Shown here piece after piece: positions 1,447 to 25,901 of a stretch of DNA of 36,064 nt. The position numbers were made by a program, and so were the translations under genes. The notes below the pieces were generated by a model that saw nothing but the letters and a program-made list of their open reading frames with translations, did not search any database and was not told the DNA's origin. The stretch's first letter is position 1. Each line of letters starts with the position of its first letter. Source of the stretch: Candidatus Iainarchaeum sp. Its GTDB lineage: Archaea > Iainarchaeota > Iainarchaeia > JAGGVJ01. The DNA lies in the NCBI GenBank assembly GCA_021158055.1, contig JAGGVJ010000039.1, positions 1 through 36,064 on the forward strand, in the 5' to 3' direction.

Positions 1447-2151
1447 ATGTTGGATAAATTAAAAGGTCGCAGTGAAATAAAAATCGGCGGAATCAAGCTG
1501 ATGGGTGAAAAGACCGATAAGAGAATAGTAATCGGCGGAGTTTTTCTGGTTCTTTTGGCTCTCGGGTTTATTATCTATATCGTGACCCCCTATTTGATGG
1601 ATCTGGCAGTGCCAAGAAACCCTGAGCTTGATGACATCATAACGATTGACACCGGAAAAAGCACTGCTGAAAGTTTTATACCTGTTGCCGGTGAAGAGCT
1701 AACTGAACAGCAAAAGCTCACTCTCAATTACATAGAGGAAGAGTTTAAGGACCCGATTATGGTTGCGGCAGTTTATGACGGGACTTCAACCGAGCTTAAT
1801 CCGAAAGGCGTCTGGAGTTATACTTTTGTGGACAACGGGACATACACGGGTGTGAAAATAAAAGTTGATGCTGAAACAAATGAACTGGTTGACACCCCGT
1901 TAAAATACACTCCGCAGCACCGCGCAACTGAAGAAGCAAGAAACAGGTTTACTGATATTGACGTTGTCAGGCTGGTCAAGCAAAAAACAGGCAATTCGGA
2001 TATTAAGTTTACTCAAATAGTTTATTTCTCTGAAATAAATACAGCCACAAAAACTTATGTAAGACTCTGGAATATCATTGTTGAAGGTCCGGAAGGTGTG
2101 CAGACCTACCAGCTTGATGACGTATCAGGAAACTTCAGGGGTCCGTTTTAA
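1447..2151 (+). CDS. Membrane-anchored protein with two PepSY-like segments
   Basis: N-terminal TM helix and two 'W-x-Y/I...V/L-D-x-x-T/S-x-E/N' segments (WSYTF..VDAETNELV; WNIIV..LDDVSGNF). Alternative start at ATG 1501. Confidence 0.55.
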   Translation: MLDKLKGRSEIKIGGIKLMGEKTDKRIVIGGVFLVLLALGFIIYIVTPYLMDLAVPRNPELDDIITIDTGKSTAESFIPVAGEELTEQQKLTLNYIEEEFKDPIMVAAVYDGTSTELNPKGVWSYTFVDNGTYTGVKIKVDAETNELVDTPLKYTPQHRATEEARNRFTDIDVVRLVKQKTGNSDIKFTQIVYFSEINTATKTYVRLWNIIVEGPEGVQTYQLDDVSGNFRGPF

Positions 2152-2167
2152 AGAGGGGCATGTATAA

Positions 2168-2327
2168 TACTGCGGTAAAAGGATTGCGGTTGTCGCCCAC
2201 CAGGCTCCCCCAGTTGGCTTTGGATGTCAAAATTAATGGAAGGACTTGGGCGGGAGCAGGCAATCAACGAGGACTGGTGGAAAAGGAAAGCCTGGCAGCC
2301 CGGATGGAATACAGGCTTGAATGTTAA
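2168..2327 (+). pseudogene. C-terminal remnant of a histidine phosphatase family gene
   Basis: Stitching across 3 frameshifts gives YCGKRIAVVAHQAP/QLALDVKINGRTW/EQAINEDWWKRKAWQPGW/EYRLEC*, with the 'VVAH' second-His motif. The N-terminal RHG half is absent. Confidence 0.7.
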
Positions 2328-2343
2328 GCAATAGCCTGGGGGT

Positions 2344-2997
2344 TTATTTTTTCCCGCTCCATTCATCGAAAAATTCCTGAAGAAATGATTCCATGAATTT
2401 GTGCCTTTCTTTAGCCATGTTTTTTGCTGTTTCTGTATGCATGTTTTCCTTTAATTTCAGGAGTTTGCTGTGGAAATGATGTATTGTCGAGGGGTTGTTT
2501 TCGGATTCCTCGTATGTGTGCCTGTCAAAGGGTTTTTTAGGATTCCACATTGTGACATTGTTTGCCCCCCAAAGAAAAAGTCCTGCTTATTCCAATTGCT
2601 CCGATCGTATCCAGATTGTCGGCATCCTGCAGAATCATGGTTTCAAGGTCATTTACGGTTTTTCCATTTTCTGAAAAACTGTATTCCTCGTGATATTCAA
2701 TGCAATGGGTGATTTTTTCTTTTTGCTTTTCTGTCAAGTTTGTCTTATCAAGGATTTCCTTGACTTTTGGCAGGGAATCTTTTGGAGAGCAGAATTTTCC
2801 GGTTTCTTTTTGGATGATTCTGTGGATGTCATGCAGGAATGCAGAAACCCCAATAACTGCTTTGTCTCTGCCTTCTTTGCTTTGAAGAGCCAGGGCATTT
2901 TTAAAGTGCGCTTTAAGTGGTACATGTCGTGACCGCTGGGGTCTTCATGAAAAAGCTCTTTGACTTTTTCTTCAAGCTGGTTGATTGTTTTTTCTAT
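2344..2997 (-). pseudogene. HD-domain phosphohydrolase (YedJ/YpgQ-like) split by two -1 frameshifts
   Basis: Three fragments join into SGHDMYHLKR / NALALQSKEGGDKAVIGVSAFLHDIHR...LQDADNLDTIGAIGISRTF / GGANNVTMWNP...IHHFHSKLLKLKENMHTETAK. Shifts lie at ~2900 and ~2570. Confidence 0.85.
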
Positions 2998-3135
2998 AAA
3001 TATATGTAAATGAATTGAGATTAAGAATGTTTTGTTCTCTTTTTGAAGCCACATTTAAGAATTGAATATAATTCCCGCAATTTTATGAAGTTCAATGATG
3101 CCGAAGGCAAAAAATCAAAGTTTTCGTGCCTGAAT

Positions 3136-4308
3136 TTAAATTAGGGGAGCCTTTGCCGTCGATTTATCCAATTGCTTTTCCTGGATAATTGATTTTAGTT
3201 CGCTTACGATGTGATTTATCAGCTCTTTTGATTTTATTTCGTTTATCTTTTTTCTAGGGTTCCAGTCTATTCCGGGCCTGTCGTTTCCTTCAATAAAATA
3301 TAAGTTGCCGTTATTGCTCCGGATAAAATCCAAAGAGTATATGGCGTGTTTTAAATCCAGTTTTTTGTTTAAATTTTTAATTATTTTCCTGGCCATGGTC
3401 AGAACGTCTTTGGGAATTGTGTTTATGGGCATATAGACTAGATTTCCCCCTTGTTGTTCATTGCATTTAAAATTCCCTTCTTTGGCAATTCTGATATAAG
3501 TCTGTATAATTTTTTGGTTTAGCATAATTATTCTCAAATCAATTAGCCCGCTGTATTTTCCAAAAACAAAGCCATTGTCGCAGTTAATGAATGGTTGAAT
3601 TATGTAAGGCGATGTTTTTCTGTTCTCTACGCCCGATTCATAAAGTTTTTTGTTTTCTTCAAAGTCAAATTCATCAAAATTTACTTTGAATATGTTGAAA
3701 CCGCCCACGCCTGTTTTGTCTTTTATTATATAATCGTCACTAAAATCAACGTTATGCCTGTGCTTTTTTAATAATTTATCCAGTTTGGTTTTAGCCTGGA
3801 TTATTTTTTGTTTTGAAAGGTTGGTTATTTCAACTGTCGGTATTGCAAATTCCTTAAACTGTTTATAGGTGTTTATTTTATTCTGGAAAACATTTTTTAT
3901 TTTTTTATTATTAAACATATAAGTGGATTTGGAAGATGTGAGCAATTTTAATTTATTTTTTTGTTTGCTATTGACGGAGGTGAATTTATCGAAAAAGACC
4001 TGCGAGTGCGCTTTGCCATTATTTTTAACCCATTTTTTATCATATGTCCAAAAACTCTGAAAAAGACCTGACCCGATAATGTCTTTGGATGTTGCAAAAG
4101 CGGCCTTAATGCCCATTTTTTTGCAGATCAATAAAAAATAACGATAACTATCATTGTAAATTACGCTGCTGCCAGTGGATGAAAACGGAGATTTTCCCCT
4201 ATATTGTTTGTCTCCAGCACTATTTGCGCTGGGTTTCGCGTAAACTACAATTGCATCATACTGTTGTGTGTTAACGTGCTGTTTTATTTTAATATCCATA
4301 TTTATCAT
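3136..4308 (-). CDS. ATP-grasp ligase (YheC/YheD- or RimK-like)
   Basis: Motifs NKINTY, YIIKDKTGVGGFNIFKV, IIQPFI, DLRII, FKCNEQQGG, YSLDF, FIEGNDRPG. Start is likely ATG 4308 or 4299. Visibly AT-richer than neighbours. Confidence 0.85.
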   Translation of the reverse strand: MINMDIKIKQHVNTQQYDAIVVYAKPSANSAGDKQYRGKSPFSSTGSSVIYNDSYRYFLLICKKMGIKAAFATSKDIIGSGLFQSFWTYDKKWVKNNGKAHSQVFFDKFTSVNSKQKNKLKLLTSSKSTYMFNNKKIKNVFQNKINTYKQFKEFAIPTVEITNLSKQKIIQAKTKLDKLLKKHRHNVDFSDDYIIKDKTGVGGFNIFKVNFDEFDFEENKKLYESGVENRKTSPYIIQPFINCDNGFVFGKYSGLIDLRIIMLNQKIIQTYIRIAKEGNFKCNEQQGGNLVYMPINTIPKDVLTMARKIIKNLNKKLDLKHAIYSLDFIRSNNGNLYFIEGNDRPGIDWNPRKKINEIKSKELINHIVSELKSIIQEKQLDKSTAKAPLI

Positions 4309-4482
4309 AATGCATATAAAGAGTTTTGAATAACCTTTTTTGTAAGTTGACTTGGTTTTTTGTTGTTTTTGTCTTGCACATAATTTCTGCAATCAACTGA
4401 AATCCAAGCAGTAGGTACGGGTTTGGACAGAGCGGGGTGCAACGCAGTGAAGCGAGAGCATAACGTGATTGAAGCGAAGAAG

Positions 4483-4730
4483 TTAATTTTTAAATCCGTT
4501 ATGTAACTTAAGAACTTTGCCTTTTAAAACACCGTGGTTTATTTTGATTTTATTTCCGCTCATCTGATTCAATGCGTTTACGTCAATATTCATTTTATCA
4601 GGCAATTTGGCACCGCACACTATTCTTTTTATTCCCGCTCTCCACGCGGCAGAAAAACACAGGGGCAGGGGGTCGCGGTTGTATAGAGCGTGCAGTCCGG
4701 GATTTTCACGGCATTTAATTTTTTGCAGGT
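4483..4730 (-). pseudogene. 5'-truncated, frameshifted nucleoside deaminase (GuaD/TadA-like CDA fold)
   Basis: Minus-strand translation CKKLNAVKIPDCTLYTTATPCP / LCFSAAWRAGIKRIVCGA...* contains the PCxxC zinc motif broken by a frameshift. The HAE half is missing. Confidence 0.75.
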
Positions 4731-4854
4731 TAAGTATTTAAATATAATTTTTATTTTTGTATCCAGAAGACTTAACAACTCATAATTTTGATAGATTTAA
4801 ATAGTTTTTTATCATTATAATAATATTCTTATTGTGTTTTTTATTGTATTTTTC

Positions 4855-4932
4855 GCTCCCTTAGTCTAGTCCGGCCAAGGATACTGCCCTTTCGAGGCAG
4901 CGACGTGGGTTCAAATCCCGCAGGGAGCACCA
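4855..4932 (+). tRNA. tRNA-Glu(TTC)
   Basis: Cloverleaf: acceptor GCTCCCT/AGGGAGC, anticodon arm CTGCC-CTTTCGA-GGCAG, GTTCAAATC T-loop, encoded CCA. Confidence 0.97.
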
Positions 4933-4939
4933 TTAATTT

Positions 4940-5055
4940 GTGGGGGTCGCCTAGCCTGGTATGGCGCTAGCCTGCTATAAAGTTTTTTTGAAATGCAGTG
5001 TTTTGCAGAAAGCTAGTGTCTTTTAGACACGTGGGTTCGAATCCCACCCCTCACG
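4940..5055 (+). tRNA. tRNA-Ser(GCT) with 33-nt canonical 37/38 intron (4978-5010)
   Basis: Stem CTAGC/GCTAG, anticodon GCT 4974-4976, BHB helix CTGC/GCAG, long variable arm, G discriminator. Confidence 0.93.
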
Positions 5056-5168
5056 CTTATTTTTTTTGAAATTTGTTTTTTGTTGTTGCGGATTCACGTG
5101 CTCGAAAAAATAAATGTTTTTTGCAACTTACAGAAAGATAAATATGTTATTGAACACACATTGTTTTC

Positions 5169-6791
5169 ATGCAGACTGAAGCAGAGATTTTTCTTGGCAC
5201 AAAAAGCCGCAAACTCTTGTTTGACGCAGAAGAAGTGGACGCAGCAGAGCTTCAGAGGCTTTTTGAGTCGCAGGGATTCGTGACAAAGTTCAGTGAAAAC
5301 CGCGGGAGTGAGCCGTTGCAGGGTCATGCCGGGCTGGCCAGAAAACTGTTTTTGGAGTCAGTTGCTTTTTTTTCAAAGACAAACAGCGTTGATGAACTGC
5401 CTTTTTTCGGGGATCATTTTGCAGTATTTGAACTCCCTGAAGAACTGGGTGGAAAGCGTGTTTTTTTTGCCTGTGACCCTGAAATTTGCGAGTGGGAAAA
5501 GCCGGTTGAAGTTGCTTTCAAAGTGTTTGAAAAAGTTGCGAAACTAAGAAAAATCAGGTTTGAAAACGGGCTTTTTGTGGGAATAACTTCAGGCAAAAAA
5601 ACAAGGAACAATGCTTCTTTTGGAATTCCGTCCGGGGGGTGGCACAAGTATTTTTGTGATTTCGGGGAAAAGGAATCCCTGCAGATATCAAAAAAACTTA
5701 TCTGGGGAATAAACAATTTTTTTGACCTTGCATACATCCGCTCTGATTTTCTTGACTGCAGCCCAAGTTTCCTCAATGTTTTTGCAGACTTGGTTCTTTT
5801 GGGGTTTTACCCGAAAGAAAGGTTGCCTGTGTTTTTTTTAAATGAAAAAAAGCTTGCCTCGCTTCCGGTTGCGTTTGGCGTTGTAAGCCACGAAGTCGAG
5901 CATTATCTGGCTGAGACATCTGGCTGGAAGAAAAACTACATTCAGGCAAGGGAAAAAATTGACTGGGACAAGAAACTTGCGCATTTTTTCAGGCACGAAT
6001 TTTACGAAAAAAACAAGGCAAAGCTTCGCGCGACTTTTTTAAAGTGGCTTAACAAAATTTTTTACGAAGTGGTAACAGATGCAAACCTGTACCTCAACGC
6101 AGTCGGTTCAGATTCAAAATGCAATGTTTTGTTGTGCCGGGACAGGGAAAAATCATGGGATTTCCGCATGAAAGTGTTTGAAAAGTTTGTCAGGCGGGGT
6201 GCGGAAAAAGACGATTATATTGTTTATTTTCTTTTTTCATATTACCCATATCTTCTTTCCCTTTACGTTGTCGAGAACAAGATCCCCGGGGAAAAATTCA
6301 AGGCAGCAGAAAACAGGCTGCTTGAGCAATCAAAAGATATTGCGCCTGGGTTTTCGGAATTCAACGCGTTCATGAAAAAAAAATCAATTGAACTTTACAG
6401 CAGGTTCCTGTTAGGAGAGGATCTTTCCCAAGACGTTGACGAGGTTTTGGCCAGAGTAATAGCTTTTTATTTTTCAGTTAACAGGGAGCAGATAAATTCA
6501 ATAGTTATGGAAAAGCACAAATCCGGGCAGTTTGGCAGCTGTGAAGTCGGCAAGACAGTTAATGAAATAGTTCTTTCAAGCAGGATAATTTCATTGAAAA
6601 AAAAACCCAATCATTTCCAGTTTTTGTTTGAGCGGCGCGGAAGAAAGTTTTACAGGTTCACGACTGAAAGAGTGGAAAAAGCATTGAATGATTTCACGCG
6701 CGAAAGACACGGGGCTGTTGCACGCAAGGGGCAAGAGACTGTTGCACGCGAGAGATGCGAAACTGTTTTGGAGGGAGACCAGCTTGGCTGA
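5169..6791 (+). CDS. Hypothetical 540-aa protein with gluzincin-type metallopeptidase motif
   Basis: VVSHEVEHY (HExxH) with downstream FYEVVTD (ExxxD third ligand). Overlaps the next gene's start. Confidence 0.6.
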   Translation: MQTEAEIFLGTKSRKLLFDAEEVDAAELQRLFESQGFVTKFSENRGSEPLQGHAGLARKLFLESVAFFSKTNSVDELPFFGDHFAVFELPEELGGKRVFFACDPEICEWEKPVEVAFKVFEKVAKLRKIRFENGLFVGITSGKKTRNNASFGIPSGGWHKYFCDFGEKESLQISKKLIWGINNFFDLAYIRSDFLDCSPSFLNVFADLVLLGFYPKERLPVFFLNEKKLASLPVAFGVVSHEVEHYLAETSGWKKNYIQAREKIDWDKKLAHFFRHEFYEKNKAKLRATFLKWLNKIFYEVVTDANLYLNAVGSDSKCNVLLCRDREKSWDFRMKVFEKFVRRGAEKDDYIVYFLFSYYPYLLSLYVVENKIPGEKFKAAENRLLEQSKDIAPGFSEFNAFMKKKSIELYSRFLLGEDLSQDVDEVLARVIAFYFSVNREQINSIVMEKHKSGQFGSCEVGKTVNEIVLSSRIISLKKKPNHFQFLFERRGRKFYRFTTERVEKALNDFTRERHGAVARKGQETVARERCETVLEGDQLG

Positions 6792-7785
6792 TTCAGTTGC
6801 CTTTGTTTACCGCCAGCTTGTGAGCTGGGAGGACCGGACTCCTTTTTCAAAGGAAAGTTCAGATAAGGCACTGGAGCTTTTTTCTCAAGTTGCTGAAATG
6901 CATTCAGTTAAGGTTTTCATCTGCCACTTTGACTGGATTGAAAAAGACACCTTAAAGAAAGCGTGGTGTTTTGAAGATTCGAAGTGGAAGAGGGTTTTTA
7001 ACGTGAAAGTTGACCTGCTCTACCAAAAGTTTGGGTTTAGGGAAGAGACAAGGAAAATAAAAGAAATACTTTCAAAACACTTCAATGTTGTGAATTCCCT
7101 GGAAATGGAAGAGGTGTGCAGGGACAAGTTTGCAACCCACAAGATGTTTTTTGATTACATGAAGCCCTGCTTTTTGGTTAAAAACAGTGATGACATCAAA
7201 AGCGTTCTTGAGGAAATACGCGGCGATCTTGTGGTGCTAAAGCCGAGGTACGGGTTTGCAGGCAGGGACGTGAAAGTTGTCCCGGCAGAGTTTCCTTTGC
7301 TTGTTCAACTGCTTGGCGGGTCAAAAGACGATATGCTTCTTGAAGAATTCATTGATTCCTCAAGGGGAGTCGAATGCCTTGGGATAAGCGGGGTCCACGA
7401 CCTTCGCGTGGTGGTTGTGGATAGCGTCATTGCAGTCTCTTATGCGAGGTTTCCAAAATCAGGTCTTGTGAGCAACGTCGCAAAAGGCGGGGAACTAAGG
7501 GTGCTTGATGTTGGAAAACTTCCGAAAAGCGTTGTGTGGATGGTTGCGGGAGTCGACCTGAAGCTCAAGAAGTTCGGGCTGAATGCCTACACCGTTGACT
7601 TCGTGTTTGATGCAAACCAGCAGCCATGGATTATTGAGCTGAACTGCCAGCCTGACTTTGAATTCAGCGATGACGAGGAAAAGAAGATGGAAACAGAGCA
7701 TTTTGGAGTTATGTGCGCGCAGTTCAAACGCTACCAAGTTCAAAAGAAGCAAGGGATAAAAGAGGAAATGAAGAAAAACAGGTAA
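6784..7785 (+). CDS. ATP-grasp ligase (RimK/GshB-like)
   Basis: Motifs CRDKFATH, VVLKPRYGFAGRDV, LEEFI, HDLRVVV, VSNVAKGG, YTVDF, IIELNCQP. TTG 6784 follows SD GAGGGAG and overlaps the upstream stop. Confidence 0.88.
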   Translation: MADSVAFVYRQLVSWEDRTPFSKESSDKALELFSQVAEMHSVKVFICHFDWIEKDTLKKAWCFEDSKWKRVFNVKVDLLYQKFGFREETRKIKEILSKHFNVVNSLEMEEVCRDKFATHKMFFDYMKPCFLVKNSDDIKSVLEEIRGDLVVLKPRYGFAGRDVKVVPAEFPLLVQLLGGSKDDMLLEEFIDSSRGVECLGISGVHDLRVVVVDSVIAVSYARFPKSGLVSNVAKGGELRVLDVGKLPKSVVWMVAGVDLKLKKFGLNAYTVDFVFDANQQPWIIELNCQPDFEFSDDEEKKMETEHFGVMCAQFKRYQVQKKQGIKEEMKKNR

Positions 7786-7805
7786 ACTAAAAAAATAAAG
7801 GAAAG

Positions 7806-8648
7806 CTACATTTTTGAAACAAAGCTTTTGGTAACTGCTATCGGAATTTCCGGGCTGGCTTCGGTCAGGTAAGAACTGTATTCAAACTGCACTGCCTGCC
7901 CGCGGGTTTTTTCAAGAAGTTCTTTTACAAGTGTTTTAACTGTTTTGCCGTTGAATTTGTGCTCAAAGGTTATTTCAAGAGGGCTTGAGCTGAACGCTTT
8001 TTTTATAGCTTCAAGGTAGCATGCAAAATCCCCTGACTCAATATACTTTTCAACCAGTTTTGCTTCTTTTTCAAAGCCCTTGCTTTTCAGGTTATTGATG
8101 TCTTTTTGAATGCTGTCTTCTTCAAGGTGATTGTAAAAAAATTTTGCGCAATAGCAGGCATAGTCGCAAAAGCCATGTCTTTGGGCTTTTATTTCTTCTG
8201 AAAACTCGCTGTTTACCTGCTTTGTCAACCTTTCGGCTTTTTTTGCATCAATGCCGATTCCTTCAATTGAACCAATGTCGATTATTGTGGGCAGCACAGA
8301 CAGTTTTGTCACAAGGTTGTGGACAAACACATATTTCGGGTTTTGTTGCTGCAAACCGGTTTTTTCAACTTCGCTCCAGAACCCGTTGTAAATGCCTTTT
8401 AACTCGTCTGTTTTTGAACCGGAATACTCGCTTAATCGGTAGTGGTTGAAATGCCAGCGGTTGTAGCGCGGAAAGCTTGAGATGATTGCTTTTCCCCCGC
8501 TCCTGCACAAGTTGTAAGCAATCGCTTCTGTTCCAATGTCCCCTCTGATGTGTTTTTTCAGCGAAGTTGCAGAGTGGGCGGCGACATAAACAGGGCCGGG
8601 TTTTTCAGAATCAAAGATCATAAATCCTTTTTTTATTTCCACTTTCAT
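7806..8648 (-). CDS. N-formylglutamate amidohydrolase-like (zinc exopeptidase fold) protein
   Basis: Ordered motifs VAAHS...GDIGT...VFVHN...IDIG...FNG...AVQFE match the FGase pattern PHS..D..T..xH..D..G..Q.E. Start ATG 8648. Confidence 0.6.
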   Translation of the reverse strand: MKVEIKKGFMIFDSEKPGPVYVAAHSATSLKKHIRGDIGTEAIAYNLCRSGGKAIISSFPRYNRWHFNHYRLSEYSGSKTDELKGIYNGFWSEVEKTGLQQQNPKYVFVHNLVTKLSVLPTIIDIGSIEGIGIDAKKAERLTKQVNSEFSEEIKAQRHGFCDYACYCAKFFYNHLEEDSIQKDINNLKSKGFEKEAKLVEKYIESGDFACYLEAIKKAFSSSPLEITFEHKFNGKTVKTLVKELLEKTRGQAVQFEYSSYLTEASPEIPIAVTKSFVSKM

Positions 8649-8688
8649 GATTAATATAAACGGTTTGTTAAATAAAAATTTGCCGAAA

Positions 8689-9540
8689 TTATTTTTTTGC
8701 GTTTCTTTCAAGGAAATTGACTATTGCTTCCGCGGGGTTTATGCCGGTTGTTTTTGAAAAGTCCCGAAACTGCGGCGCCCTGTTGACTTCAACCACCATG
8801 AACCCGTTTGGAGATTCAAGCAAGTCAACTCCGGCGACCTGAAAGTCCAGTGCTTTAACCGCTTTTATCGCAAGCTCTTCTGCCTCTAAAGGCGCTTCGC
8901 ATGCTTTTCCTTTTCCTCCAAGCGCAATGTTTGAGCGGAAATCACCTTCGGGAACAAACCGGTACATTGACCCTATGACCTGGTTGTCCACTATGAAAAG
9001 CCGCATGTCGCGTCCCGGGTTCTGGATGAATGTCTGGACATAAATTTCTTCTTCCTTTGGAACAAATTCCCGCAGTTCAACCTCGTTTTCGGTTTTGACT
9101 ACCCCGCGCCCTTTCGCGCCGATAACAGGTTTTATTACCGCGGGATAGCTTGTCAGTTCAACAGTGTGGTCTGCAAGTTCCGCTCCAAAACCGTAAATTG
9201 TCCGGGGGGTTGGTATTTTGTGCTGCAAAAGCACAAAAGTGTGAACTGCCTTGTTGTCAAGCTTGTAAACCTCGGGTTTTTCAAAAACAGGAATGTGTTT
9301 GTTTTTAAGGTGTTGGGTGATGATGTAAGCAAGGTTTTTCCACCTTCCGACACCGCGCACGAGCGCAACGTCAGGCAGTTTGTATTTTTTTCCGCTGTAA
9401 TAAACATATGGCTTGTCTGAAAAGTCAATCAAAAACCTGTTGAAGTAACGAAACCGCACTTCGTGTCCGCGTCTGAGAGCTTCAGTCATAATCTCGCGGT
9501 TTTCCCAGCTTTTGCTTGCGCCGATAATCCATATTAACAT
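8689..9540 (-). CDS. RimK/LysX family alpha-L-glutamate ligase
   Basis: DNK, IPTPRT, PAVIKPVIGAKGRGV, YVQTFI, GRDMRLF, DFRSNIALGG, AGVDLL, VVEVNRAP. Start ATG 9540. Confidence 0.93.
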   Translation of the reverse strand: MLIWIIGASKSWENREIMTEALRRGHEVRFRYFNRFLIDFSDKPYVYYSGKKYKLPDVALVRGVGRWKNLAYIITQHLKNKHIPVFEKPEVYKLDNKAVHTFVLLQHKIPTPRTIYGFGAELADHTVELTSYPAVIKPVIGAKGRGVVKTENEVELREFVPKEEEIYVQTFIQNPGRDMRLFIVDNQVIGSMYRFVPEGDFRSNIALGGKGKACEAPLEAEELAIKAVKALDFQVAGVDLLESPNGFMVVEVNRAPQFRDFSKTTGINPAEAIVNFLERNAKK

Positions 9541-9617
9541 GAATGAAACTAAGTTCAGGATCATTAATTAATGTTTTGAGCATGTCCTTTTTTGAAAAAG
9601 AAACGCCTGAAAAAAAG

Positions 9618-24833: not shown

Positions 24834-25901
24834 TTGGAATCAATAGTTAAAGAAGCATTGAGTAAAGAAGTTTCTGTAGACAAATACGCTGAAGAATTCG
24901 GCGTTCCAAAGATTCGGGTTATCGGTTGCGGTGGAGCAGGAAACAACACTATTAACCGGCTTGCAAAACTTGGTGTTTCAGGCGCGGAACTTATTGCAAT
25001 AAACACTGACAAGCAACATCTTTCAATTATTGATGAGTCAATCAAGAAAGTGCTTATCGGAAAAAGCATTACAAGGGGGCTTGGAGCAGGTGGTTATCCT
25101 GAAATGGGTGCAAAGTCAGCTGAAGTTTCAAGAGCATCTCTTGAAGAAGCGCTTTCTGACACCGATATGCTTTTCCTGTGCGCCGGAATGGGTGGGGGAA
25201 CCGGAACAGGTTCTGCACCTGTTGTTGCAGAAATTGCAAAAGAACAAGGCGCAATAGTAATCGGGATGGTTACTTATCCGTTTGCGCTTGAGCGTGCAAG
25301 GCTTTCAAAAGCCGACGACGGGTTAAAGGCTTTGTCTGAAGTCGCTGACACGGTGATTGTCATTGATAACAACAGGCTTGTTCACCTTGTGCCGAACCTT
25401 CCCATGAATCAGGCGTTTGCGGTTGCGGATGAGGTTATTTCAAGAGCAGTCAGGGGAATAACTGAAACCATTACCCAGCCGTCACTCATAAACCTTGATT
25501 ATGCGGACGTTCGTTCTGTCATGAGCAACGCAGGGCTTTCAATGATTGCCGTGGGTGAAGCAAAAGGCGTCAATAGGGTTGAAGAAGCAGCACAGTCCAC
25601 AATGGAAAACGCTTTGCTTGATGTCGACTGGAAAGGCGCAAAAGGCGCGTTGATTCACATAACCGGTGGGCAGGATCTTACGCTCGGTGAAGCAAATGAC
25701 CTTGGAGAACTCGTAACCGGTGACGTTGACTCGGCAGCAAGTGTTATCTGGGGCGCGAGAATTTCCCCGATGTTTGAAGGAAAAATTGAAGTTATTGCAA
25801 TCATGACCGGGGTTACAGGCGCCCACATTTCAGGACCTGTGTCAAAAGGAATGGATGGCTCAAAAGGCGGCCATGACCTTGGAATTGATTTCATAAAGTA
25901 A
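24834..25901 (+). CDS. ftsZ: Cell division protein FtsZ
   Basis: [33 protein letters not shown]; TTG after GAGGTG. Confidence 0.97.

Follow-up and report, generated by a model that had tools for sequence, protein, structure and literature searches.

A reshuffled cluster of ATP-grasp ligases and putative hydrolases in a Candidatus Iainarchaeum genome, with a LysW-like protein as candidate substrate

We analyzed a stretch of 36,064 nt from Candidatus Iainarchaeum sp. (assembly GCA_021158055.1, contig JAGGVJ010000039.1), called the window in the following, which makes up one entire contig (C42) of a genome (G000) of 1.15 Mb in 45 contigs with a completeness of 94.9%. The window carries five neighboring genes coding for three ATP-grasp ligases (RimK, AG1 and AG2), a divergent putative amidohydrolase (Y280) and an orphan protein with an HExxH motif (X540), which the original prediction, made from the letters of this DNA, had read as a candidate writer-eraser system for peptides or glutamate. 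We consider it somewhat better than an even bet (roughly 55%) that these genes represent a locally rearranged form of a modular gene set for ligation and trimming (‘ligate-and-trim’), which is found across this class of DPANN archaea and acts on the tail of a protein. The modular set comprises RimK-type ligases together with RimB-like retropepsins, FGase, MATCAP/QEGLA metallopeptidases and M29-like, M20 and C39-like peptidases. The idea of a ligase–hydrolase system held in so far as the pair of RimK and an FGase-like protein is conserved and AG2 is coupled to an HExxH protein in the slot of MATCAP, whereas the cluster is not the self-contained unit of 6.4 kb that had been envisaged, further parts being located on two other contigs (C16 and C19).

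Ligases and hydrolases are linked in related genomes

We compared 215 genomes of the class including G000, which is the sole genome of its family in this set; the other 214 are related to it at class level only. The canonical FGase (PF05013) was observed in 11 of the 215 genomes, 10 of them above the cut-off, and was not found in G000. RimK lies directly upstream of it in 7 of 10 loci; of the other three, two run into a contig end and one lacks a RimK in its vicinity. In the window this place is held by Y280, which starts (8648) 40 nt past the RimK stop codon. We inspected the contexts of Y-family genes in the window and in two independent loci (L015 and L016), and in all three they adjoin ATP-grasp genes. 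In L015, a 37-kb archaeal metagenome contig, a Y gene, RimK and a second Y gene each overlap by 4 nt, and the RimK is 35% identical to that of the window over the full length. In L016, from an uncultured archaeon, the Y gene is divergent from an ATP-grasp gene and lies beside an operon of a RimB-like retropepsin, RimK and RimK'. In the RimK tree the window protein clades with the Y-linked RimK of L015 and the FGase-linked RimK of a class genome (G080) with a support of 100/99, separate from those RimKs that travel with a degenerate RimK'. From this grouping it can be inferred that RimK and its FGase-fold partner are passed on together, and the most economical view of the Y family is that of a rapidly evolving FGase which holds this slot after RimK.

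A second kind of linkage was observed for AG2, whose orthologues (31–36% identity) occur in seven genomes, all of them from one family (f12). In 7 of 7 the orthologue adjoins a PF08014 MATCAP/TIGR02421 QEGLA metallopeptidase (155 bits against TIGR02421 for the f12 MATCAP), with a MATCAP–AG2 overlap of 4 nt in one locus (L039); in the window the stop codon of X540 (6791) and the start of AG2 (6784) overlap by 8 nt. Among the six f12 loci that were fetched, five have AG2 inside a larger cluster, which has on one flank a GNAT acetyltransferase and a RimB-like retropepsin and on the opposite flank RimK', RimK, MATCAP, AG2 itself and an M29-like peptidase. Orthologues of AG2 and Y280 were found on one contig of 3987 nt of a near relative, where they carry consecutive locus tags. 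AG1 has an orthologue in G184 (38% identity, E 1.5e-80), which is convergent to RimK', RimK and FGase; this is the layout of the window. The clusters of G080, G003 and G124 add a C39-like protein of 500 aa as well as M20 and M29-like peptidases; in G124 and G003 the LysK-like M20 peptidases adjoin the RimK–FGase pair, and M17-type exopeptidases occur likewise in related clusters. Ligase–hydrolase pairs thus do co-occur in relatives, one of the points on which the original prediction had hinged. The two convergent ligase–hydrolase pairs that it had described were found as well: AG2 ends at 7785 and Y280 at 7806, which leaves a gap of 20 bp.

Outside the window, contig C16 of G000 (locus L002) holds a further operon with a RimB-like retropepsin of 128 aa, a RimK of 287 aa and a degenerate RimK' of 286 aa, for which no match was found in Pfam. 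It is orthologous to the operon of L016 (42% and 29% identity). Counting these, G000 has no fewer than five genes for ligases of the RimK type or related to it. MATCAP was not found in this genome.

Two side observations were made in these loci. The ATP-grasp reading frame that adjoins the Y gene in L016 matches Pfam in a permuted order, with the C-terminal motif at 9–30 and the N-terminal and central part at 138–280, so that this protein may be circularly permuted or rearranged. Just downstream of FGase, four loci of one genus (L047, L050, L051 and L052; g54) contain a conserved hydrophobic protein of 84–85 aa with a P-Q-(L/F) motif, which by eye has the look of a small membrane protein of the PQ-loop/SemiSWEET type.

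The three ATP-grasp ligases

All three proteins that had been called ATP-grasp ligases were confirmed as such by matches to Pfam and NCBIfam and by invariant catalytic positions. RimK matches PF08443 with an E-value of 8.3e-39 (133.6 bits, cut-off 21) and the NCBIfam family rimK_fam (TIGR00768) with 191 bits, which is above the cut-off of 143.4. AG1 matches the Pfam families ATPgrasp_ST (1.9e-10) and RimK (5.5e-8), and AG2 matches ATPgrasp_ST (4.8e-11), RimK (2.8e-9) and TTL (7.8e-5), with a weak likeness to YheCD too. The match of AG2 to TTL (PF03133; 22.5 bits, cut-off 20.1) covers 35 residues only (299–333) and is outscored by ATPgrasp_ST and RimK. AG1 and AG2 are paralogues that belong to a rare clade separate from RimK, as each retrieves the other plus the same loci in other genomes, and gene callers and homologues concur on the length of AG2. 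In an alignment of 16 RimKs the residues K145, R188, D247, E259 and N261 are invariant, and so are the ATP-binding Lys, the Asp-x-Arg and the Mg-binding Asp/Glu-x-Asn in 12 AG1, AG2 and RimK sequences. Because of these invariant positions all three ligases look active.

We asked how the window RimK relates to the ligases of known pathways, since the original prediction had left it open whether it groups with LysX or CofF. It stays below the equivalog cut-offs of LysX (TIGR02144; 160.1 bits, cut-off 275.6), MptN (161.9 bits, cut-off 350) and CofF (67.4 bits, cut-off 300) and also below that of the bacterial RimK equivalog (92 bits, cut-off 331). A search of the genome found neither lysW, as modeled by TIGR01206, nor argC/LysY, and for argB/LysZ it returned a weak sub-threshold match (37 bits, threshold 151). 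From these scores and from the missing lysW and argC we conclude that the roles of LysX/ArgX, MptN and CofF are not supported for the window RimK. By family, the amino acid that it attaches is probably glutamate.

Y280 has a predicted FGase-type fold that sequence profiles do not recognize

The original prediction had called the gene downstream of RimK FGase-like. This description stands for the fold, while at the level of sequence no match was obtained for Y280 in Pfam, NCBIfam or the PDB, PF05013 being absent even at E≤10. In none of 33 members of the Y family did PF05013 match at E≤1, no Pfam family was matched consistently, and a profile search of the family against the PDB gave no match. 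Aligning the family with nine FGases of the class by hhalign was negative as well (probability 1.3). The family is small: when 1.84 billion representative proteins were scanned in full with HMMER, 34 relatives only were obtained, most of them of about 300–330 aa; homologues with the 280 aa of Y280 exist as well.

We modeled Y280 with AlphaFold2 from 33 sequences and obtained a predicted local distance difference test score (pLDDT) of 91.9 and a predicted template modeling (TM) score of 0.90; folding from the single sequence reached a pLDDT of 37.4 only. The best match of this model in VIA-align is 2odf_A (Atu2144), with a Z score of 16.1 and a root-mean-square deviation of 3.0 over 195 residues, followed by the N-formylglutamate amidohydrolase 2q7s_B (Z 13.7), and the matches cover residues 5–280. 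Next come Csd4, the poly-gamma-glutamate hydrolases YndL and PghP and M14 carboxypeptidases, with Z scores of 9–11. Foldseek gave weak matches (best E 1.9e-3, TM scores 0.48–0.50), while the answer of VIA-align was clear. According to the model Y280 has the alpha-beta fold of FGases and related zinc peptidases. The residues H25, D37, R71, H110, P120 and D124 are invariant in the family and E256 is nearly invariant, so that the order H/D/R/H/E parallels H9, D33, R61, H125 and E194 of the class FGases, a parallel of order only. Relative to FGase, the Y family has an inserted helical region.

X540 is an orphan in the place of MATCAP

The presence of an HExxH protein overlapping one of the ligases was borne out by X540, which contains the sequence H-E-V-E-H, followed by an ExxxD motif, and shares its last codons with the start of AG2. 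We found one homologue, which is 73% identical and differs by conservative changes and insertions or deletions of whole codons, with the motif kept as HE(V/I)EH; on sequence grounds X540 is a real gene. It is extremely rare, with two members in 5.8 billion clusters. Searches of Pfam (E≤10), NCBIfam and, by sequence, the PDB gave no match, and in the Atlas searches no family was recognized, the best score being 0.89 to unnamed clusters. Of the 966 long open reading frames (ORFs) in the genome, 19 contain HExxH and 5 contain HExxH with an ExxxD behind it; the spacing of the two motifs in X540 is found in several gluzincin families. The archaeal MATCAPs are characterized by HExxxH instead of HExxH, and X540 lacks a second motif of the E-E-G-L-A type.

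X540 occupies the slot beside AG2 that MATCAP holds in the loci of the AG2 orthologues. The simplest reading is that MATCAP was displaced there by another HExxH protein, or has diverged past recognition. Because X540 sits exactly where relatives carry MATCAP, it may be regarded as the carboxypeptidase that matches AG2.

A LysW-like acidic-tail protein as candidate substrate

Five ORFs of the genome have at least five Asp or Glu among their last eight residues, and one of them, on contig C19, codes for a LysW-like protein of 65 aa with two CxxC pairs and a tail that ends in D-E-D-D-E-Y. It matches the Pfam family Zn_ribbon_LysW (PF21344) with 29.8 bits (cut-off 27), whereas TIGR01206 misses the same protein. 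It aligns with proteins of 67–71 aa whose genes flank the f12 clusters on the GNAT/RimB side, one or two genes away, and whose tails read D-E-D-E-D-Y plus one residue. As had been stated originally, the window itself encodes none of the LysW, Cof or Mpt partners and offers no identifiable substrate; for the genome as a whole this does not hold, and the LysW-like protein on C19 is the best candidate substrate of the system.

With a LysW-like profile we obtained matches in 101 of the 215 class genomes. When counted by hand, RimK is on the same contig and no further than about 4 kb away for 24 of the 33 best matches (E≤4e-19). Of the remaining nine, one is that of G000, four have RimK on a different contig and four are from genomes in which RimK was not matched. 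A further 11 weaker matches from nine other families are located 2.4–7 kb from RimK; for three of them the loci were read and the linkage was confirmed. In a complex prediction for the window RimK and the LysW-like protein a score of 0.00 and a mark of 0.32 were obtained, which counts neither way.

The tails of LysW-like proteins vary by lineage: of two further examples (L093 and L092) one has four successive Glu at its end and the other V-E-E-D, as if in some lineages part of the glutamate tail were encoded in the genome. The closest pairing of candidate substrate and peptidase that we observed is in G176, where MATCAP and a LysW-like gene are separated by about 230 nt on the same strand.

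Genomic surroundings of the cluster

The features discussed here are collected in Table 1. AG1 is split from the other cluster genes by 780 bp with two tRNA genes. The second of these, directly past tRNA-Glu(UUC), was missed by ARAGORN and found with the Rfam tRNA model (43.3 bits); by eye it reads as tRNA-Ser(GCU), with a long variable arm and an intron that follows position 37. We dropped a functional tie of the cluster to the adjacent tRNA-Glu, because this gene stands in tandem with the putative tRNA-Ser and such tRNAs are not present in the related clusters. A tie to FtsZ, which is 17 kb off, was dropped as well, nothing connecting FtsZ with the cluster. Just downstream of AG1 lies a gene similar to HD-domain phosphohydrolases that runs across three reading frames; from its two frameshifts it can be taken as a pseudogene or an assembly error. 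The remainder of the window contains archaeal housekeeping genes (Hef, CGI-121, PAN, FEN1, FtsZ and a form-III-like RuBisCO), and the best named homologues come from a metagenome-assembled genome of ‘Candidatus Diapherotrites’. None of the five cluster proteins matched the PADLOC defense models.

Table 1. Features of the cluster and of related loci; positions refer to the window unless another contig or locus is named
Feature	Position	Strand	Description
HD-domain phosphohydrolase-like gene	~2148–3054	-	three reading frames, two frameshifts
AG1	3136–4308	-	ATP-grasp ligase, 390 aa, AG2 paralogue; ORF open to 4392
tRNA, putative tRNA-Ser(GCU)	4938–5057	+	directly past tRNA-Glu(UUC)
X540	5169–6791	+	orphan, 540 aa, HExxH 241–245 and ExxxD 300–304; putative metallopeptidase
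AG2	6784–7785	+	ATP-grasp ligase, 333 aa, AG1/AG2 clade; ORF open from 6688
Y280	7806–8648	-	280 aa, putative amidohydrolase, divergent, FGase superfamily (zinc-peptidase-like fold); ORF open to 8711
RimK	8689–9564	-	RimK-family alpha-L-amino-acid (probably glutamate) ligase, 291 aa
FtsZ	24834–25901		
RimB–RimK–RimK' operon	G000 contig C16:16136–18239 (L002)		RimB-like retropepsin, RimK, degenerate RimK'
LysW-like protein	G000 contig C19:9129–9326 (L057:2130–2327)		zinc ribbon, 65 aa, PF21344
LysW-like protein	L093 (G124:C27 9216–9422)		
LysW-like protein	L092 (G003 1423–1629)		
MATCAP and LysW-like gene	G176 contig C21:14578–15923		~230 nt apart, same strand
ATP-grasp ORF beside Y gene	L016:5032–5964	-	Pfam matches in permuted order

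Discussion

From the observed gene content, the modeled fold of Y280, the active sites of the ligases and the linkage in relatives we infer writer and eraser activities, the pairing of hydrolases with ligases and the substrate. Through an acyl phosphate, RimK would attach L-glutamate or a different amino acid to a carboxylate in a side chain or at a C-terminus, and Y280, as a divergent metallo-amidohydrolase modeled with the fold of an enzyme that releases glutamate from an N-acyl linkage, would remove the residue added by RimK. AG2 would add an amino acid to a carboxylate activated in the same way as acyl phosphate, with X540 as the matching carboxypeptidase that removes this residue, and its paralogue AG1 would be a third ligase of the same chemistry. 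The target would most likely be an acidic C-terminal tail, with the LysW-like protein on C19 as the first candidate. That writer and eraser are paired is suggested by the 40-nt gap and the 8-nt overlap in the window and by the 4-nt overlaps in relatives, and an acidic protein tail fits the MATCAP and RimB-type partners. In bacteria RimB removes glutamates that were added by RimK (PMC11957791).

Several of our observations weigh against this interpretation. The exact set of five genes is not conserved, because Y280 and X540 each occur in 1 of the 215 class genomes, X540 being found in 0 of the 214 others. By sequence Y280 is not an FGase, and Y280 and its close relative carry Asn for the Asp of the family motif G-I-D-F-N-R and miss about 30 residues after it, so that its activity could be altered. 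For X540 no homology to any peptidase was detectable, and an hhalign comparison with archaeal MATCAPs gave a probability of 0.3, i.e. no detectable homology; its assignment as a putative metallopeptidase draws on the motif and the gene position. Regarding the substrate, the LysW-like gene of G000 is on another contig than the window and thus unlinked, and most of the RimK-linked LysW-like cases belong to one family (f12), so that they are not independent. The distributions of the two genes also diverge: family f10 has RimK in 13 of 13 genomes and the LysW-like gene in 0 of 13, while the reverse is seen in f22 (RimK 4/23, LysW-like 15/23), in f36 (0/4 and 4/4) and also in f4.

It is possible, if doubtful, that the cluster serves the metabolism of free peptides, in which the ligases make either a short acidic peptide or poly-alpha-glutamate as storage compound, osmolyte or signal that is turned over by Y280, X540 and aminopeptidases. 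The substrate of FGase is indeed a small N-acyl-glutamate, the next-best fold matches of Y280 hydrolyse free poly-gamma-glutamate, the M29-like, M20 and M17-type exopeptidases of the related clusters typically act on free peptides, and a GNAT acetyltransferase is present in the f12 clusters. Free poly-alpha-glutamate is also formed by RimK in vitro (PMC10375531, PMC11957791). On the other side, RimB-type peptidases like those of our clusters act on protein tails where they were studied (PMC11957791). A protein as target is further favored by the LysW-like acidic-tail protein that accompanies the clusters in many genomes. The MATCAP-family peptidases, too, act on protein tails where studied. 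This LysW-like protein brings up a carrier route of the LysW/AmCP type, which we regard as very unlikely: the ligase would load the tail, enzymes would modify the load and Y280 or an M20 peptidase would release the product. Such a route is in line with a zinc ribbon that exceeds the Pfam threshold, with the 160 bits of the window RimK against LysX and with the LysK-like M20 peptidases adjoining RimK–FGase in G124 and G003. However, 160 bits are below the LysX cut-off of 275.6, the lysW of TIGR01206 and argC/LysY were not found and argB/LysZ was matched weakly below threshold in a genome that is 94.9% complete, and the window holds no modifying enzymes. The tails differ as well, since those of LysW end in E-D-W-G-E and those observed here in Tyr or in acidic runs.

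A more modest explanation would be that RimK and Y280 alone form a functional unit, with AG1, AG2 and X540 as unrelated neighbors and X540 not being a hydrolase. The missing family and fold evidence for X540, the distance of AG1 with its two intervening tRNA genes and the restriction of the five-gene set to this lineage would be explained in this way. It is hardly probable, as ligases of the AG1/AG2 type are found beside RimK–peptidase clusters in G184 and in five of six f12 loci, the orthologue of AG2 lies beside that of Y280 in the near relative, and the overlap of X540 with AG2 mirrors the one of MATCAP with AG2 in L039. Taken together, we prefer a reshuffled ligate-and-trim set that acts on a protein tail.

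A far-reaching and rather unlikely extension of the ligate-and-trim interpretation is a prokaryotic ‘tail code’, in which the acidic tail of the LysW-like protein is cyclically trimmed and rebuilt as a counterpart of the tyrosination/glutamylation cycle of tubulin. An AG1/AG2 ligase would re-attach the aromatic residue at the end of the tail after its removal by X540 or, in the relatives, by MATCAP, while RimK would lengthen the tail with glutamates and the FGase-fold enzyme would shorten it. If true, the tubulin cycle might have its evolutionary source here, and the archaeal cycle would serve to toggle a small regulatory or carrier protein between states.

Systems of this kind are known or have been predicted: RimK/RimB acting on bS6 and, in eukaryotes, TTL/TTLL versus MATCAP/CCP acting on tubulin have been studied. 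With the bacterial RimK–RimB(–RimA) systems of Pseudomonas and with E. coli RimK, which perform poly-alpha-L-glutamylation of bS6 and its trimming, the window shares the pairing of RimK with a hydrolase, which in bacteria is co-transcribed with RimK and undoes its product (PMC11957791) and in the window would do likewise. G000 in addition has the operon of RimB-like retropepsin and RimK on C16. In the window, however, the partner is a putative FGase-fold metallohydrolase and not a retropepsin, RimA is absent, and two ligases of another clade and the HExxH orphan are added. To our knowledge, Archaea lack bS6. With the FGase family (PF05013; 2q7s, 2odf) Y280 has in common the modeled fold, the order of conserved residues and the slot directly after RimK. 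It differs in that the Y family gives no match to the sequence profile and has a helical insert, in that the window copy lacks the ~30 residues and the one motif Asp, and in that the context of HutG and histidine degradation is absent around Y280. The tubulin tail cycle is resembled by the pairing of an AG2-type ATP-grasp enzyme with a PF08014 MATCAP in the relatives, by the weak TTL match of AG2 and by the acidic, Tyr-ending tail of the LysW-like candidate, the tail of alpha-tubulin being acidic and Tyr-ending also. On the other hand, G000 has no MATCAP, X540 carries HExxH and has no detectable homology to MATCAP, and no tubulin is involved. Compared with the LysW/LysX/ArgX carrier system of archaea and Thermus, a RimK-family ligase and a small acidic-tail zinc ribbon are shared, whereas the scores are below the cut-offs, LysY and LysZ were not found above threshold, the tail motif is another one and the genes are unlinked in G000.

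Iyer et al. in 2009 reportedly predicted ATP-grasp/peptidase neighborhoods, and this work may well cover related ones; bacterial cassettes of a GshB-like ligase, FGase and QEGLA/MATCAP (TIGR02421) are comparable too. The enzyme classes, a ligase with trimming hydrolases, are the same; here we find RimK and AG1/AG2 ligases, a branch of FGases that is invisible to Pfam and an orphan in place of MATCAP. In a literature search, with supplements lying outside its range, we found no paper on archaeal RimK–FGase, MATCAP–ATP-grasp or LysW-like–RimK clusters, on the Y family or on X540. What is new is a family of modeled FGase fold, not seen by Pfam, that is tied to RimK, an orphan HExxH protein that apparently replaces MATCAP, and the gathering of at least five RimK-type or related ligases in a genome of 1.15 Mb together with a concrete candidate substrate.

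So far only few pairs of a ligase and a trimming peptidase have been studied, namely RimK/RimB and TTL/TTLL versus MATCAP/CCP. The genomes of this class are reduced to about 1 Mb; RimK was found in 88, MATCAP in 49 and FGase in 11 of the 215. A genome of 1.15 Mb can afford few genes, and that G000 spends at least five ligase genes on this theme suggests an important function, one that did not appear in the papers retrieved by our literature search. As the LysW-like protein is a concrete candidate substrate to test, the function of this family of clusters becomes approachable by experiment.

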